64,000 bases of DNA from Thermoanaerobaculia bacterium (GTDB lineage: Bacteria; Acidobacteriota; Thermoanaerobaculia; Multivoradales; Multivoraceae), in assembly GCA_963664405.1 (NCBI GenBank), contig OY761158.1:2176001-2240000 (forward strand), read 5' to 3'. A model generated the notes under the pieces. The model searched no databases. It was not told the DNA's origin and saw nothing but the letters and a program-made list of their open reading frames with translations. Below, piece by piece: positions 40,534 through 46,990 of the stretch; position 1 is the first letter of the stretch; the number at the start of each line of letters is the position of its first letter. The position numbers were made by a program, and so were the translations under genes.

Positions 40534-42693
40534 CTAGCGGGCCACGGGGCCTCCGGCGTCCTCAGAGCTCTCGAGAACGAAGTCGCCGTGCAACCGAATG
40601 TCGGCCGACGAACTGCCAACGAGGACCTGGAAGGTGCCGGCTTCAGCGAGCCAACGGCATCGATCGACGTCGTAGAACGACAGATCGGCCGCCTTCAGGT
40701 CGCAGGAAAAGAGACGGCTCTCTCCCGCGGCGAGCGAACAGCGAACGAAGGCCCTGAGCTCCTTATCGGGCCGCTCGACGCTGCTCTCCACGTCGCGGAC
40801 ATAGACTTGTGCGATCTCGACCCCCGATCTCTGTCCTTGGTTCGTCACCCGGAAAGTCAGGGTGGCGGCAAAGCGGTCACCCCGTCCCTGGGTCTCGACT
40901 CGCAGGTCGTCATAGCGAAAGCAGGTGTAGCTCAGCCCATGACCGAAGGGAAAGAGCGGCGGGTCCGGATGGCGCTCAATGCCGCGGTAACCGACAAACA
41001 CACCTTCGTTGTAGAGAGGACTCGGGCGTGGAAAGCTCTCCCCGTCTGGAAGCTGACCGAGATGGGAGGGGAAAGTGATGGGCAACCTGGCCGATGGATT
41101 GACATCGCCGAGTAGAACGTCCGCCAGAGCACGGCCGCCCTGTTCACCGGGATACCACGCATGCAGAATCGTCGCCGCCCCGCCAACCCATGATCCCATC
41201 GTCACCGCCCCCCCGGCGACGATCACGACAACCGTCCGCGGATTGACTTCGAGCACGGTCTCGATCAACTCCACCTGACCCGCGGGTAGATCGAGGACCC
41301 CACCGCGACGATCGACACTCTCGCGCTCCCAGGTGTGGTCGAAGCCAACGACCACGATCGCCGCATCGCTCTTGCCCGCTAGCTGCGCCGCGCGGCGCAA
41401 CTTCGTCGGTGTACTCCGGCCGTCGAGCTCACACCCTTTCCTGTAGCGAACGCGAAACCGGTTCGCGAACCGCTCCCGAAGTCCGGCCAGCGGCGAAACG
41501 CGGTGGAAGGGCCTGACCTCGCTGCTACCGTCCTCTCCTAGCTGAGCTACGGCGGCATTGGGGCCGAGGACCGCCAGCGATCCGAGATCGGTTGGGCTGA
41601 GTGGCAGAACACCGTCATCGTTCTTGAGCAGCACCATCGAGGCACGGGCCACCTCCAACGCCAGAGCTCGGTGCTCGAGACAGTTGACGACCCCACGCTG
41701 CTTGACGGGTCGACGCTCGAAGAGCCCGTTCGCCATCTTGGTTCGGAGCACGCGTCGCGCCGCTCTCTCTACCGCCTCTGCCGACACCCTTCCCGCCTTC
41801 ACCGCCTCGACCAGCGCGCGGCCGTAGTGCACTTGCTTCGGCATCTCGACATCGAGGCCCGCATCGATCGACCGTTCGGTACCCTCGACCGTCTTCCAGT
41901 CCCCCACCACGATGCCGCGGAAGCCCCACTCTCCTCTCAGAACATCAGTGAGAAGGTACTCGTGCTCCGCGCCACGCGATCCGTTGACCCCAGTACGAGC
42001 CGACATCACGCTCCACACCCCGCCCTCCTCGACACAGGCACGGAACGCCGGCAGATAGATTTCTCGCAGAGCGCGCTCCCCGACCTCGACCATCAGTTTT
42101 CGATCGCTCAGTTCTGGATCGTTGGTGCCCTCCTGGTTGTGGCAGGCGAGATGCTTGACGCAGGCGATGACTCCCTGCTGCTGGATCCCCTCGACAAACG
42201 GCACCGCGATCGCGGCAGTGAGGAAGGGGTCTTCGCTGAAGCACTCCTGCGTGCGCCCGGCGCGCGAGTCACGAATGATGTTGACGCAGGGAGCCAGGAG
42301 CCAGTTGCGGCCCTTGGCCATTGCTTCTCGTGCGATCGCCGAGGCCATGCGACGCGAGAGCTCGGGGTCCCAAGCGCTGGCGAGAGCGATGGAGACCGGG
42401 AAGGCGGTTGCTTTGTCGGTATGGCGGAATGGATAGCGCCACACCGCTTCGCCGATACCTCGAGGACCATCACAACATCGAAAGTCCGGGATACCAAGGC
42501 GGCGATTCTTCGGCGCTCGCATCTGCCCGATACCGTGAAGCTGGCGAGCCTTTTCGAGCAGACTCATCTGCTGTAGCAGCAGCTCGACTCGGTCGTCGAG
42601 CGAGCTCTCAGGATCGAGGCGCGGATGACGCGCGAGATCTCCCCCGGATTGAGCATCGCCCACGGCAGCGGACCCTACCACCGTCGTCGGCAC
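40534..42693 (-). CDS. Glycoside hydrolase family 3 beta-glucosidase with Fn3 domain
   Basis: DGPRG, FSEDP, VKH, VGDW nucleophile, WYPGEQGG, FPFGHGLSYT; start uncertain. Confidence 0.93.
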   Translation of the reverse strand: MPTTVVGSAAVGDAQSGGDLARHPRLDPESSLDDRVELLLQQMSLLEKARQLHGIGQMRAPKNRRLGIPDFRCCDGPRGIGEAVWRYPFRHTDKATAFPVSIALASAWDPELSRRMASAIAREAMAKGRNWLLAPCVNIIRDSRAGRTQECFSEDPFLTAAIAVPFVEGIQQQGVIACVKHLACHNQEGTNDPELSDRKLMVEVGERALREIYLPAFRACVEEGGVWSVMSARTGVNGSRGAEHEYLLTDVLRGEWGFRGIVVGDWKTVEGTERSIDAGLDVEMPKQVHYGRALVEAVKAGRVSAEAVERAARRVLRTKMANGLFERRPVKQRGVVNCLEHRALALEVARASMVLLKNDDGVLPLSPTDLGSLAVLGPNAAVAQLGEDGSSEVRPFHRVSPLAGLRERFANRFRVRYRKGCELDGRSTPTKLRRAAQLAGKSDAAIVVVGFDHTWERESVDRRGGVLDLPAGQVELIETVLEVNPRTVVVIVAGGAVTMGSWVGGAATILHAWYPGEQGGRALADVLLGDVNPSARLPITFPSHLGQLPDGESFPRPSPLYNEGVFVGYRGIERHPDPPLFPFGHGLSYTCFRYDDLRVETQGRGDRFAATLTFRVTNQGQRSGVEIAQVYVRDVESSVERPDKELRAFVRCSLAAGESRLFSCDLKAADLSFYDVDRCRWLAEAGTFQVLVGSSSADIRLHGDFVLESSEDAGGPVAR

Positions 42694-42704
42694 CGAGCCC
42701 CCTG

Positions 42705-42872
42705 CTAGTGTCGTGTCCCAGAAGTGCCTACCCAATAGCTCGGCCCCTTTCGCTCGCTGCCTTCGTTACGCCTCGTCGACAGATTCCCAATATGCCTGCC
42801 TCGCCGCGCCTTGGCAGCGAACGAAATGACCTCGATCTATTAGGCAGGCATTTCCGGGACACGACACGCTAG
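42705..42872. mobile_element. Family A CTAG element with different arms
   Basis: Arms CTAGTGTCGTGTCCCAGAAGTGCCTACCCAATAG and its inverted match; shared core GACAGATTCCCAATATGCCTGC. Confidence 0.8.
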
Positions 42873-43210
42873 CGGCCTCGTCGAGATTCATCCACCGGCT
42901 CCGCCATCGAGTCGAGGAATTCGAGTACCAGGTGGTTGAGCTCGTCAGGCCTCTCGAGGCTCGGTAGGTGAGCGACACCTGCGATGTCAACCGCACGCGC
43001 TCCGGGAATGCCCTCGACCAGCGCTCGGCCCGAAGCTCGACTGCGGCGGACATGCACCTCGAAGCGTTCGTCGAAGGCGTCGACCTGGGGCTGCCACGTA
43101 CGCGAATCGGCGATGCCGGCGTGAAGAAAGATCACCGGCGGCCCTGCGCCGGAGCGCGCGTACCACAAGCGCGCGCCCTCGACTTCCAAGTATCCGATTC
43201 TCTCGGTCAT
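42869..43210 (-). pseudogene. Alpha/beta hydrolase with its catalytic core deleted
   Basis: N-terminal FLHAGIADSRTW joined to C-terminal AHLPSLERPD in only ~113 aa; no nucleophile elbow. Confidence 0.75.
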
Positions 43211-43376
43211 CTTGATCCGTCTACGATTCCAAAAATAGATAGACCTGTCTATTTTTTTCACCGATCCTGAGTTATCCTTGCCCCTGAACGGTGTTGCTGC
43301 CGCCGAGTGTACGCGGAAACGACCTCTTGACAGTTCGGTTCTCAGTCGGCGAAAGTTCCTTCGACAAGGAGTCTTG

Positions 43377-44066
43377 ATGAAGCCAACAACCAAGCGAATC
43401 GCGTGGGTAGCCGGCATTCTGGCGGTTTCTATCGCGGCCGGCAGCTGGGGCTACCGACAGGCGATGTTCGCCGGCCTGATCCGGATCAACGAGTACGACA
43501 TCCGCTCCGAAGGCATCCTGCAAGTTGGGGAGCTGGCTCCAGACCTGGAGCTCGCCGACGTCGATGGCGGCATGACCAAACTCTCGCAGCTGTGGGCAGC
43601 GAAGCCGCTGGTGCTGGTATTCGGGAGTTATACCTGACCACCCTTCCGAGCCAGTTTGGCTCGGATCGAGAAGCTGCGGGAAGAGTGGACTCCTCGCCTC
43701 GAGTTCACCTACGTCTACATCAAAGAGGCCCATCCTGAAGACGAGTGGCAGGCGCCGAAGAACCTCGAGAGTGACGTCATCTTCAAGCAGCCCACCAACT
43801 TCGTCGAGCGTATGGAGCTCGCCGAGACCTTCGTCGAAGCCAATGACATCGGCACTCGCACCCTGGTCGACGACATGACCAACAAGGCAAATGCCTGTTA
43901 TGCCGCCTGGCCAGAGCGCATCTACGTCATCGACCAGGACGGCACGATCGCTTACAAGGGCGGCATGGGTCCCTTCAAGTTCAAGCCGAAAGATCTCGGA
44001 GAGTTCCTCCAAGATCGCTACAGTCACCTCGCCCCGGAGATCACAGAGCTCCAACAGCCCTCTTGA
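43377..44066 (+). CDS. Iodothyronine deiodinase-like selenoprotein (Sec at TGA 43635-43637)
   Basis: In-frame readthrough gives PLVLVFGSYT-U-PPFR, YIKEAHPEDEW, YAAWPERIYVI, YKGGMGP, all deiodinase motifs; SECIS-like hairpin follows. Confidence 0.9.
43645..43665 (+). promoter_or_regulatory. Bacterial SECIS-like hairpin
   Basis: TCCGAGCCA-GTT-TGGCTCGGA, perfect 9-bp stem; loop G follows a 16-nt spacer after the UGA. Confidence 0.8.
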
Positions 44067-44082
44067 AGCCGGCCGGCCGCGG

Positions 44083-44189
44083 GGGGGGTCTTGGGGACCG
44101 GGCTGCTCCGCGGGTTTCTCAGACAGTCGTAGTGAAGCCGACTTGCTTCGGTATTTTTATGCTACGCAGCCCGGTCCCCAAGACCCCCC
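44083..44189. repeat. Perfect 24-bp inverted repeat with 59-nt spacer
   Basis: GGGGGGTCTTGGGGACCGGGCTGC / GCAGCCCGGTCCCCAAGACCCCCC. Confidence 0.85.
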
Positions 44190-44404
44190 TGATGCGGCCT
44201 CCGCCATCGGCGAGGGAGCGTCGTTTCTGAGTGCTACGGCTGACGTAGCCGAGCCTTCAGGATGGCCAGGGGGTTCGGTCGGCCAGGCTGTCCTGGGTGG
44301 GGAGCGTGCGCCTTATCGCCACAGCGCAGTGAGCGAACGCGGAGGCGTATTCCACGCCGCACAAGTGAACGACCGAGCACGCGTACGATCGCCGCCCAGG
44401 CGGA

Positions 44405-44529
44405 GCCGGGTGTTCAGGGTGCCCCATATCGCGGCAGCACAGGGGCGAGGCGACGTAGGCGTACCGGAGGTACGTCGGAGGAGCCGAGCGACGAGCACGC
44501 CGTGAGATGGGGTGCCCTGGACAGCCGGC
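44405..44529. repeat. Family B palindromic element
   Basis: Homologous to 15702-15827; abuts the TAG stop of the DUF5916 gene. Confidence 0.75.
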
Positions 44530-46778
44530 TAAGGTTGCCAGAAGTAGGTGTACTTCAGGATCAACTCTCGGCGGAAGGTCTCGCGCGCGCGGAACGACGG
44601 CGCGTCCCAGTTCTCGTTGTAGACGAGGAAGAGATCGGCGCCAGGCTTGTAGATCCAGTTCAGCCGTAGGTTGAGGCCAACGAGCTCGGCAGCGTCGTTG
44701 TACTGGAGGAAGGTGTTGAGCCGCAGGTCGGGATTGAACGAGAGGTCGACACGAAGACCGTAAACCGTGGTCTCGAAGTCGCCCTGCGGTAGCGTGACGT
44801 CGTTGTAGTTCCACGTCAGCTCGCCGAAAATATGCTTCGATCCGCGCACTCTCGCGGTGAGAAAGTAGCTCTCCCGATCGCCATCGAAGAAGGGACCGAT
44901 GTTGATATTGCCGTTGAAGGAGAAGCGCCGGCCACTATTCGAGAAGCCGCGGATGAACAGACCGTCGAAATTGTAGAGACCCGGCGGGATGACAATTCCG
45001 GGCTGGATCTCGAAGGGCTCGAAGAGCTGCTCTGTATCTTGGACCCAGGCGACTCGAAAGCGATCGTCTCCCTTGGTTCGCAGCGAGAGCGGAGCCAGGA
45101 GGATCCGTCGGCTCTCGATGTCTCCGATGCTTTCGCGCTCGTAGTACTCCAGCTCGGCGTCGAGGGTCCAGCTACGGATGAACCACTTGTTCACTCGTGG
45201 CTCGAATCGCACCGCCGGCTTGTAGTGCATGAAGTCGCGGCGCTGCAGAAAGCCCATGGCGGGATCGAAGTTCTTCTGCGCCTGGACGATGTCGAGGCTC
45301 GCTCGCAGATTGCTGCGCGTGTATACCCCGCCGGTGCCGAAGGAGCCCGACTCATCGCTGCCGTGCTCGTTCTCGCTTCCAGCGCCGAAAAGATAAAAAC
45401 TCGAAGTGGTCGTCGGCTTGTAATCGAGATCGAGCCCGTAGAGACGATTGAAACCGGAACCGCTCGGGTCGCGCTCGGTGACGATCATGCCCAAAGACGA
45501 GCGCTCGCCGAGGTTGCGCTTGAGACGGAACACTCCGAAGAGCTCGTCGGGCACGAATCGCCGCCCTTCTTCGTCCACTTGATCGGTACTCACACCCAGC
45601 ACGCCCACGTTCCAGTTCCCTACTCGCCCGGTGAGCCGCCCGCCCCAGTCGAGGGGAACCTCCTGGCCCTGATCGATGCCGATGCGGCGAGAGAAGAACG
45701 CCTTCATCAGGGGTGGTTGATTGGGGTTGCCGCTGCTCGGAGGGCCGAACTCGAAGATGCCGGCGTTCTCGAGAAAAAACTCACGCTTCTCGGGGAAGAA
45801 GAGCGAGAAGCGAGTGATGTTCACCTGCTGTTGGTCGACTTCGACCTGGGCGAAGTCTGTGTTGTAGGTCAGGTCGAGGGTCAGCGACCGGGTCACGCCC
45901 CATTTGACGTCGAGACCGGCATCCAGCTCATCATCGTGCTTCGGCTCGCGCTGCGGCTCTTCGCCCACCAGCCCGACCACGAAGGGCTTGACGTCGAGGC
46001 GTCGGGCCGCCTTGACATCGCCGATGCCGGTCAGATCGCCGGCGAGGGAGACCAGATGAGCCGCATAGGTTCGGCCCACCGCGCGAATATTGACCTCTCG
46101 CGATATCGCCGCCCAGTTACTCTCTTCATTGGTACGTCGCACAACTCGACGCACGTTGAGGCCCCAGGTGTCCTCTCCAGGGTTGAAGCGAAGACTGGTG
46201 AAGGGGATCGCCACCTCGGCGAACCAGCCCTGCGCATTGCGGCGCGTCCCCACCGCCCACACGCCGTCCCATTCGACGTTGTAGAGCTTCCCCTCGTCGG
46301 TGACCAGAGCATCGGTGCGCGCCCCGTTGGGGTTGATCTCGAACATGACGCTGTTGCGCTGATCGTGGAAAGTGTCGAGCACGATCGAGATAGCATCGTC
46401 GTTGCGCCCCAGATCAGCGTCTCGCTGCATCTCCTTGGCGACGATCTCTTCCGGCTTCGAATCGAAGGCTCGGATGCCGAAGTACAAGGTGCTCGGCGTA
46501 TAGAGAACCGAGAACTCGGTGCGCTCGGCGGCGGGTCGGTTGTCGTTGGGCTCTCTGGCGGCGAAGTCCTTACCGACCTCCGCTTCGGCCCACGCCGCTT
46601 CGGTGAGCTCGCCATCGACCGTGATCGCCTGGTCGATAGGGAGAGCGGCGATACTGGGCCGAAGGGTCGAGCTGTTCTGCGCCGCCACGGGTGTCACCCA
46701 AAGAGCGGCAATGGCGAGCCAAGGCAGCAGCAGGCGTGCCAGGGCCGGCCGAGAGTCCATGTAGTTTCGCGCTCTCAT
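44529..46778 (-). CDS. CBM9-like/DUF5916 outer-membrane protein, copy 1
   Basis: VDGELTEAAW, DTFHDQRN, NTDFAQVEVD, FFPEKREFFLEN, FFSRRIG. Confidence 0.88.
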   Translation of the reverse strand: MRARNYMDSRPALARLLLPWLAIAALWVTPVAAQNSSTLRPSIAALPIDQAITVDGELTEAAWAEAEVGKDFAAREPNDNRPAAERTEFSVLYTPSTLYFGIRAFDSKPEEIVAKEMQRDADLGRNDDAISIVLDTFHDQRNSVMFEINPNGARTDALVTDEGKLYNVEWDGVWAVGTRRNAQGWFAEVAIPFTSLRFNPGEDTWGLNVRRVVRRTNEESNWAAISREVNIRAVGRTYAAHLVSLAGDLTGIGDVKAARRLDVKPFVVGLVGEEPQREPKHDDELDAGLDVKWGVTRSLTLDLTYNTDFAQVEVDQQQVNITRFSLFFPEKREFFLENAGIFEFGPPSSGNPNQPPLMKAFFSRRIGIDQGQEVPLDWGGRLTGRVGNWNVGVLGVSTDQVDEEGRRFVPDELFGVFRLKRNLGERSSLGMIVTERDPSGSGFNRLYGLDLDYKPTTTSSFYLFGAGSENEHGSDESGSFGTGGVYTRSNLRASLDIVQAQKNFDPAMGFLQRRDFMHYKPAVRFEPRVNKWFIRSWTLDAELEYYERESIGDIESRRILLAPLSLRTKGDDRFRVAWVQDTEQLFEPFEIQPGIVIPPGLYNFDGLFIRGFSNSGRRFSFNGNINIGPFFDGDRESYFLTARVRGSKHIFGELTWNYNDVTLPQGDFETTVYGLRVDLSFNPDLRLNTFLQYNDAAELVGLNLRLNWIYKPGADLFLVYNENWDAPSFRARETFRRELILKYTYFWQP

Positions 46779-46990
46779 CTCGTAAATCCGGGCAGAGACT
46801 ATCCCATCCCGGGACCGGCCCCCACGCGACGGTTCCGGGTGTTCACGGTGCCACAGATCGGGGCGGGGCACCCCGCCGAGGCTCTCGGCGACGGCCAGGC
46901 CTGAAACCGCCGAAGAATCGGGCTGCGCCGTTGCCCGAAGCGTATAGGAAGCAACGCGCAAGTGCGCCGTCCTCGGCGCCAAAAAACAAG

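Follow-up and report, generated by a model that had tools for sequence, protein, structure and literature searches.

Introduction

Deiodinase-like selenoproteins of bacteria, with bacterial selenocysteine insertion sequence (SECIS) elements and with homologues carrying cysteine (Cys) instead, were described from the Sargasso Sea metagenome by Zhang, Fomenko and Gladyshev in 2005, and the discoverers proposed a redox role for the bacterial family (PMC1088965). The entries in reviews of 2022 (PMC9312934) and 2026 (PMC13188914) list the family under PF00837, function unknown, with the motif UxxC. Here we describe a gene of this kind from a 64,000-nucleotide (nt) stretch of the genome of a soil or sediment Thermoanaerobaculia bacterium (contig OY761158.1, positions 2,176,001 to 2,240,000; hereafter the window, in whose numbering positions are given). 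A sequence-only reading of the window had joined two open reading frames (ORFs) across an in-frame TGA into one selenoprotein resembling the vertebrate deiodinases, and had interpreted it as a membrane-anchored reductive dehalogenase of iodo- and bromo-aromatic compounds such as halotyrosines. From sequence comparison and modelling, we put at close to nine in ten the probability that the locus is one intact gene encoding a selenocysteine (Sec)-containing, N-terminally anchored protein of the T4_deiodinase family.

The gene and the described bacterial family have in common PF00837, a catalytic in-frame UGA, the existence of Cys homologues and, as worded in the original description, a SECIS with a small G-containing loop. 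They differ in motif, at least by the tables of the reviews: these give UxxC, whereas the clade of the window protein shares U-P-P-F with the animal enzymes, and its one Cys lies outside this motif, at position 174, 135 or 85. The clade also differs in coming from soil and sediment Acidobacteriota and Planctomycetota and in having an N-terminal anchor.

With the vertebrate deiodinases Dio1-3 the window protein shares 30-31% identity over the catalytic domain, template modelling (TM) scores of 0.80-0.83 on the target, the motifs FGSxT-U-PPF, YIxEAHPxDxW and ER(I/L)YVI, the deiodinase insertion and an N-terminal membrane helix. As in Dio3, a proximal 'CTU' Cys is found in 3 of 79 relatives, and the position of the second Cys is variable. 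Unlike Dio1-3, the window gene has its SECIS inside the coding region and not as an element of the 3' untranslated region, and its protein has Tyr at -2 for Cys or Ala, Met for Arg275 and Pro for His219; its insertion is three residues longer than that of Dio3, and no thyroid hormone is expected in the bacterial host. ResA/TlpA and AhpC-TSA proteins likewise have a thioredoxin fold, with the nucleophile placed where the first long helix begins, and, in the ResA type, an N-terminal anchor (fold matches at 1e-7 to 1e-9), but the window protein is without CxxC, has the deiodinase insertion and shares only 13-21% identity with them.

A single reading frame across an in-frame TGA

The ORFs at 43278-43637 and 43656-44066 (translation table 11) are in the same frame, which from the ATG at 43377 to the stop TGA at 44064-44066 contains a single internal in-frame TGA, at codon 87 of 229. 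The 229-residue translation carries FGSYT-U-PPF, YIKEAHPEDEW, DDMTNKANACYAAWPERIYVI and YKGGMGP as well as the hydrophobic stretch IAWVAGILAVSIAAG, and both frame and translation matched the single protein that the sequence-only reading had assembled across the TGA at 43635. That reading had also expected standard annotation to split the gene, and this was seen in the databases, where 111 of the 120 relatives listed were C-terminal pieces of 125-156 residues; a 136-residue C-terminal piece 97% identical to the window protein was among them.

DNA contigs from runs X1 (study P1) and X4 (study P2), either of which may be the source of the assembly itself, span 43200-44250 with no differences and keep the TGA, so that neither DNA data set showed the TGC or TGG that a sequencing error would have hidden. 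Two contigs from RNA libraries also matched the gene. The first, X13, is 231 nt long and covers 43353-43583 with no differences; the second, X20, is 174 nt long and covers 43619-43792 with four differences and the TGA retained, one of them an A-to-G change at 43649 by which the hairpin pair 43649/43661 goes from A-U to G-U. Neither contig bridges the TGA under the 31-nt rule and DNA carry-over is possible, and transcription is thus not established by them.

Selenocysteine machinery and conservation of the TGA

The genome, a single contig of 6.78 Mb estimated to be 97% complete, was searched for the Sec machinery, and all four components were found. The tRNA-Sec scored 72.4 bits (cut-off 47), with its anticodon given as tca by ARAGORN, and selB (339.8 bits), selA (423.1 bits) and selD (362.1 bits) were all above curated cut-offs. 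As a side observation, selD-like loci were located at G000:C1:388007-388930 (L018) and G000:C1:565727-566650 (L019), G000:C1 being the contig of this genome. The selD gene has one in-frame TGA and probably encodes a Sec-containing SelD, and a second selD-like match, of 242.9 bits, lies inside a 749-codon open frame that may encode a fusion protein.

When 301 genomes of the phylum were searched in six frames, 94 gave a match, and the 30 loci that were kept (L022-L051) were all examined. The TGA was present at the exact column in 28 of these, 25 of them reading T-U-P-P-F and three T-U-G-P-F, while the other two (L047 and L051) had Cys. Three of the 28 belong to genomes that are marked as unpublished (L028 in G024, L038 in G049 and L040 in G152), and when these are left out the count becomes 25 of 27. 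A scan of public genomes, restricted to one genome per species, yielded a further set of 80 loci, with TGA at the column in 79 and Cys in none; in the last, L130, the motif was not found. The TGA-bearing loci cover 36-67% identity and show in-frame conservation on either side of the TGA. When the two halves of the protein were used separately in tblastn, the upstream half recovered 53 of the 80 loci and the downstream half all 80. Cys was found at the column in seven full-length database proteins (P0017, P0023, P0030, P0051, P0090, P0108 and P0120). The aligned homologues thus carry TGA or Cys at the Sec position, the pattern by which the sequence-only reading had proposed to judge the column, and with the Sec machinery, the DNA contigs and the hairpin described below, the TGA at 43635-43637 is almost certainly a selenocysteine codon. 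Two gene calls from the Joint Genome Institute (JGI), P0016 and P0029, have W at the column (FGSFTWPPF); this is likely a TGA translated as Trp by a caller working under another code, rather than a true TGG.

The hairpin downstream of the TGA

The perfect 9-bp hairpin with loop GTT that had been noticed 8 nt after the TGA was confirmed by folding, its first paired base being the eighth nt past the TGA and its centroid fold having an energy of -15.8 kcal/mol. A perfect stem of at least 9 bp at the same distance, closed by a loop of 3-6 nt that contains G, occurred in only 27 of 5550 control windows (0.5%) taken from 30 related loci. With the stem relaxed to at least 6 bp, and a G-containing loop of 3-6 nt placed at +16 to +30, the feature was found in 23 of the 28 Sec loci (21 of 25 once the unpublished genomes are excluded) and in neither of the two Cys loci, compared with 511 of 5550 control windows (9.2%) from the same loci.

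Covariation was counted only on a 13-sequence subclade (alignment A4), because the register of the hairpin differs between subclades, shifting by 1-3 nt in the consensus over all 25 UPPF-type Sec loci (A2). In A4 the nine-pair helix was paired in 78.6% of cells and three of the nine pairs were altered on both sides. The covariation score was 0.215, against 0.093 +/- 0.022 for shuffles, and none of 500 shuffles reached it; a slide of -1 also scores in this count, since 5 of the 13 rows use a bulged register. Columns 15 and 27 of the alignment, which are third positions of Arg and Ala codons, read A-U, G-C or C-G, all synonymous. The hairpin agrees with bacterial SECIS elements as these are worded in the original description, namely a stem-loop just after the UGA with a small G-containing apical loop (PMC1088965).

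Family membership, fold and catalytic residues

Searched against Pfam, as the sequence-only reading had suggested, the readthrough protein matched PF00837 (T4_deiodinase) over residues 48-212 at 115.7 bits (E 2.6e-33), well above the gathering threshold of 27. The best matches among structures in the PDB by phmmer were mouse Dio3 (4tr3, E 2.9e-24) and mouse Dio2 (9h48, E 9.4e-21). An AlphaFold2 model based on an alignment of 50 sequences had a mean predicted local distance difference test (pLDDT) score of 93.2 and a predicted TM (pTM) score of 0.83, and the top two Foldseek matches to this model were again 9h48 (E 5.8e-14, TM 0.83 on target) and 4tr3 (E 1.7e-13, TM 0.80). The next fold after the deiodinases was of the ResA type, at 2.8e-9, an E-value about 1e5-fold weaker, with peroxiredoxins lower. 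The protein also matched Pfam AhpC-TSA (PF00578) at 35.1 bits (cut-off 26), with peroxiredoxin structures ranking well after the deiodinases (5e-8 at best), and Redoxin at 25.4 bits, just below the cut-off.

Residue U87 aligns with the Sec-to-Cys position of both 4tr3 and 9h48, and the Sec column was invariant in all 50 aligned sequences, as were F82, G83, S84, T86, P88, P89, F90, R91, Y114, E117, A118, H119 and W124, and further N129, R145, D165, W178, P179, R181, G195, G198 and P199. The motifs that had been attributed to vertebrate deiodinases were present in mouse Dio3 in its alignment with the window protein, as FGSCT(C for U)PPF, YIEEAHPSDGW and ERLYVI, and the deiodinase-specific insertion after EAH was present in the alignment of the window protein with the Dio3 and Dio2 structures. 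In the literature, Ser127, Thr129, Tyr157, Glu160, His162 and His182 are named as the proton relay of Dio2, and His202 and Trp207 of Dio3 form the edges of the insertion (PMC11592359). Of the relay and loop-edge residues the window protein keeps Ser84, Thr86, Tyr114, Glu117, His119 and Trp124. By profile, sequence and fold matches alike, the protein is a true member of the T4_deiodinase family.

N-terminal anchor

The hydrophobic N-terminal anchor that had been read from the sequence appeared in the model as a helix of residues 4-31, and a comparable segment is present in most relatives, 46 of the 50 aligned having a 19-residue segment with a Kyte-Doolittle mean of at least 1.6; the mean of the window core is 1.52. 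The net charge is +3 ahead of the hydrophobic core and 0 over the 15 residues that follow. These features point to a signal anchor with its N-terminus inside, which would place the catalytic domain outside the cytoplasm. A relative from a member of the Planctomycetaceae (L126:5857-6519) has a lipobox-like LTGC in place of the N-terminal anchor, which suggests that this enzyme also exists as a lipoprotein and points to its export.

The second cysteine

Cysteines were compared in 79 distinct Sec-containing sequences, made up of the window protein and 78 loci. Exactly one Cys was present in the catalytic domain of 75 of these, at window position 135 in 63, at 174 in ten and at 85 in two; of the four others, one had two Cys (85 and 194) and three had none. 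Position 85 corresponds to the 'proximal' Cys of FGSCTU in Dio3. The pattern fits a lone Cys (C174 in the window protein) acting as a candidate resolving cysteine, which would form a selenenylsulfide with U87. Three mutually exclusive Cys sites amount to at most three evolutionary events, and the pattern is therefore a hint only. The same idea of a resolving residue is discussed for the proximal and distal Cys of the animal enzymes (PMC11592359).

Genomic context, paralogues and distribution

The features of the gene are collected in Table 1. It appears to be monocistronic, and the terminator-like hairpin would end its transcript. Upstream, on the opposite strand, lies a GH3 beta-glucosidase gene (40534-42735), and downstream, in convergent orientation, a gene for a DUF5916 protein (44529-46982).

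Table 1. Coordinates of the deiodinase-like gene, its associated features and its paralogues
Feature	Position	Strand	Basis
Complete gene of 229 codons, one of them for Sec, and terminal TGA stop (44064-44066)	43377..44066	+	Translation with TGA = U
Shine-Dalgarno-like AAGGAG, 5 nt before ATG 43377	43366..43371	+	Sequence reading
N-terminal helix, model residues 4-31, with hydrophobic core IAWVAGILAVSIAAGSWGY (residues 8-26); probable signal-anchor	43386..43469	+	DSSP on model, Kyte-Doolittle
TGA as selenocysteine U87, within FGSYT-U-PPF	43635..43637	+	TGA conserved at column, Cys in some homologues
Bacterial SECIS-like hairpin, 9-bp stem 43645-43653 / 43657-43665, apical loop GUU 43654-43656	43645..43665	+	Fold, recurrence, covariation
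TGT = Cys174, sole cysteine of the protein, candidate resolving cysteine	43896..43898	+	Inferred from Cys pattern of 79 Sec forms
Terminator-like hairpin and T-run, 67 nt past the stop	44133..44160	+	Consensus scan
Paralogue locus L132	G000:C1:5870618-5871133	-	Six-frame search
Paralogue locus L133	G000:C1:3119665-3120156	-	Six-frame search
Paralogue locus L134	G000:C1:1582491-1583012	+	Six-frame search

Three paralogues in the same genome have the TGA in FGSYT-U-PPF with a hairpin after it, are without a hydrophobic N-terminus and are presumably cytoplasmic. Their neighbours (sulfatase, DUF3604, luciferase-like monooxygenase and APH-like genes) showed no common theme. No halogen-related gene was found beside the window gene, its 80 relatives or the three paralogues. 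In the other loci the commonest neighbours were an M24 peptidase gene upstream and a ROK-family gene downstream. A linkage to these was considered and set aside, since both are confined to one Thermoanaerobaculia subclade and read as synteny of relatives. The ROK neighbour was present in 24 loci, and the largest neighbour cluster (43 loci) is inflated by the upstream frame of the gene itself.

By their titles, the public-genome loci belong to Acidobacteriota (Thermoanaerobaculia, Vicinamibacteria and Holophagales) and Planctomycetota, and the nearest of them, at 65-66% identity, are from 'Candidatus Multivorans sp.', a genus within Thermoanaerobaculia. Closer to the window the distribution is patchy, with a match in one (G236) of the five other genomes of its family, f1, all five of which are of genus g2 (the window being of g1) and 98-99% complete.

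Several further observations were made around the gene and in the genome. Just upstream, on the minus strand, a 113-codon ORF (42869-43210) gave no match to Pfam at E 0.001; when inspected by eye its sequence looks like the two ends of an alpha/beta hydrolase that has lost its middle, and it may be a gene remnant. After the gene comes a perfect inverted repeat of 24 nt, whose arms (44083-44106 and 44166-44189) are separated by 59 nt and enclose the terminator-like hairpin. The 117-nt element with this inverted repeat has at least 13 further copies in the genome at 70-81% identity, and other contigs of the DNA runs match parts of it; it is a dispersed palindromic intergenic repeat, similar to repetitive extragenic palindromic (REP) sequences or miniature inverted-repeat transposable elements (MITEs). 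Elsewhere in the genome, three weaker thioredoxin-fold matches with one in-frame TGA each (G000:C1:2329929-2330192, 1994204-1994605 and 1239335-1239619) may be further selenoproteins of other families.

Discussion

The gene described here is an additional member of a family known since 2005; it is real, it is mis-split by standard annotation and it adds no new principle. Of the interpretation offered from the sequence alone, the Sec-containing deiodinase-family gene with an N-terminal hydrophobic helix has held, while the assignment as an iodo- or bromo-aromatic dehalogenase was an analogy and is not supported as stated.

We propose that the UGA at 43635-43637 would be read as Sec by SelB and tRNA-Sec, directed by the hairpin 8 nt downstream, and that the TGA at 44064 would serve as the real stop. 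The N-terminal helix, with its charge of +3 in front, would anchor the protein in the inner membrane with the catalytic domain most likely in the periplasm. In the model U87 lies at the head of helix 88-104, next to the relay residues Ser84, Thr86, Tyr114, Glu117, His119 and Trp124, from where, by homology, its selenolate would attack an electrophilic atom of the substrate and become oxidized to Se-X. Cys174 would then form a selenenylsulfide, and an external thiol or a disulfide relay would reduce the enzyme.

A number of observations weigh against this account or against parts of it. The loci that were counted are mutually related and their counts are not independent events. The folding energy of the hairpin is ordinary for GC-rich DNA (z = -1.03 for a 51-nt stretch; rank 5 of 214 windows in the locus), and the ranks across loci are mixed, from 1 to 149 of 214; energy alone is therefore no proof, and the position-specific hairpin and covariation counts were used instead. 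When 43300-44300 was compared with Rfam, allowing E-values as high as 10, only chance-level matches and no SECIS family were returned. Against NCBIfam NF038285 ('deiodinase_rel', a hypothetical equivalog of 347 positions) the protein scored 171.7 bits (E 2.9e-50), where 250 are required. Only positions 177-337 of this profile have a counterpart, in the catalytic domain, and nothing in the window protein corresponds to its N-terminal half; the three paralogues and two relatives, at 175-198 bits, are likewise matched in part and fall short of the cut-off. By this comparison the window protein is of a shorter architecture, outside the NF038285 model. The positive-inside signal is modest, the flank past the helix being basic in many members too, and of the window ORFs in the 7 kb to either side, none lies next to the gene in any of the 80 loci; the genomic context offers no hint of function.

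Two catalytic positions also count against the account. Arg275 of Dio3 and Lys241 of Dio2 are proposed to clamp the substrate carboxylate (PMC11592359). The position of Arg275 is Met197 in the window protein, in a column that is variable among the 50 sequences (P in 15, M in 13, V in 7, T in 5, L in 5 and I in 2); the position is never conserved in the clade, and the missing clamp speaks against amino-acid-type substrates in particular. The loss of the clamp residue bears on substrate type and not on family membership. At the position of Dio3 His219 and Dio2 His182 the window protein has Pro139, with P in 48 of 50 sequences, and the missing relay His counts against any deiodinase-type chemistry.

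For the substrate we lean, tentatively and at less than even odds, towards aromatic dehalogenation of the deiodinase type, with a halide that is not an amino acid favoured. What these odds leave is shared among peroxide reduction, thiol-disulfide exchange with proteins and activities of other kinds. Halogen chemistry is suggested by analogy, because the deiodinase-specific motifs are near-identical over a very long evolutionary distance and because Sec is so strongly preferred over Cys in our sample.

A peroxiredoxin-like, thiol-dependent peroxidase, in which U87 would react with a hydroperoxide to give a selenenic acid, Cys174 would resolve it and a periplasmic thiol relay would recycle the enzyme, is a somewhat doubtful alternative that nevertheless deserves weight. 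The AhpC-TSA match lies over its cut-off and that to Redoxin just under, the fold matches at 1e-7 to 1e-8 include peroxiredoxins and BCP proteins, and most such thioredoxin-fold selenoproteins are called redox proteins in the entries of the reviews; yet the deiodinase matches are some five orders of magnitude better than any peroxiredoxin match, and neither the deiodinase insertion nor its invariant residues are known to act in peroxide reduction. The position of the resolving Cys varies among peroxiredoxins, which the single movable second Cys of the clade resembles. Peroxiredoxins also have a Pro at a set spacing before (T/S)xxC, but this usual spacing is absent from the window sequence.

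The substrates proposed by the sequence-only reading, for which the enzyme would be a Sec-dependent reductive dehalogenase of iodo- or bromo-aromatic amino acids (halotyrosines, iodothyronines) passing through Se-I or Se-Br as in animal deiodinases, seem improbable to us, and halotyrosines are somewhat disfavoured. Dio3 and Dio2 are the best matches in sequence and fold, the insertion after EAH is present with its edge residues Glu117, His119 and Trp124 invariant, and Ser84 and Thr86, whose counterparts in Dio2 are given proton-relay roles (PMC11592359), are invariant as well. Sec forms greatly outnumber Cys forms (28 to 2 in the phylum search; 79 TGA and no Cys among the 80 public loci), which fits a chemistry where selenium is hard to replace. 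Set against this are the Met in place of the carboxylate clamp, in a column that is mostly P, M, V, T, L or I, the Pro in place of the relay His219/His182, and the lack of any halogen-related neighbour at the gene, its 80 relatives or the three paralogues. The original description of the family expected a different, redox function and no thyroid hormones in bacteria (PMC1088965), and full-text literature searches turned up no work on the function of any bacterial member.

That the protein is instead an anchored, periplasmic oxidoreductase of the ResA/TlpA/CcmG type, exchanging thiols and disulfides with a protein rather than a small molecule, appears just as improbable. Membrane-anchored ResA-type proteins form the next-best fold class (E-values from 2.8e-9 to 2e-8 and TM-scores on target reaching 0.85), they have the N-terminal anchor architecture in common with the window protein and there is a weak NCBIfam ResA match; but the clade has neither CxxC nor UxxC, all 50 sequences carrying U-P-P-F, the neighbourhood holds no conserved gene for cytochrome maturation or for another partner, and the three paralogues of the same genome that have no hydrophobic N-terminus indicate a domain not tied to the periplasm. 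Finally, that the TGA is an ordinary stop, leaving two small genes, a pseudogene or a sequencing error for TGC or TGG, would agree with its treatment by standard gene callers and with the gene's own TGA terminator, but is very improbable given a TGA shared at this column by 28 of the 30 and 79 of the 80 loci, with in-frame conservation on both sides, a recurrent and covarying hairpin, a complete Sec machinery in the genome, the TGA in two DNA data sets and a model in which neither half alone makes a complete thioredoxin fold.

Returning to dehalogenation of non-amino-acid halides, a broader and more speculative proposal, again drawn by analogy, is that the anchored U-P-P-F clade may represent a third kind of reductive dehalogenase in bacteria, which would do without a cofactor, unlike the corrinoid and flavin kinds. 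Located at the outer face of the inner membrane in soil and sediment Acidobacteriota and Planctomycetota, such enzymes might use selenium-halogen chemistry to remove iodine or bromine from natural non-amino-acid organohalogens, with the single movable Cys resolving, and the clade might be the prokaryotic stock from which the animal deiodinases came.

The selenoproteomes of Acidobacteriota are under-counted, because this gene and its three paralogues, like 111 of the 120 listed relatives, are missed or halved by gene callers. The family to which they belong has been without an assigned function since 2005, yet it keeps most of the catalytic residues of the animal deiodinases and was nearly always found in its Sec form in our sample, and it is a reasonable and inexpensive candidate in which to look for selenium-based dehalogenation in bacteria.

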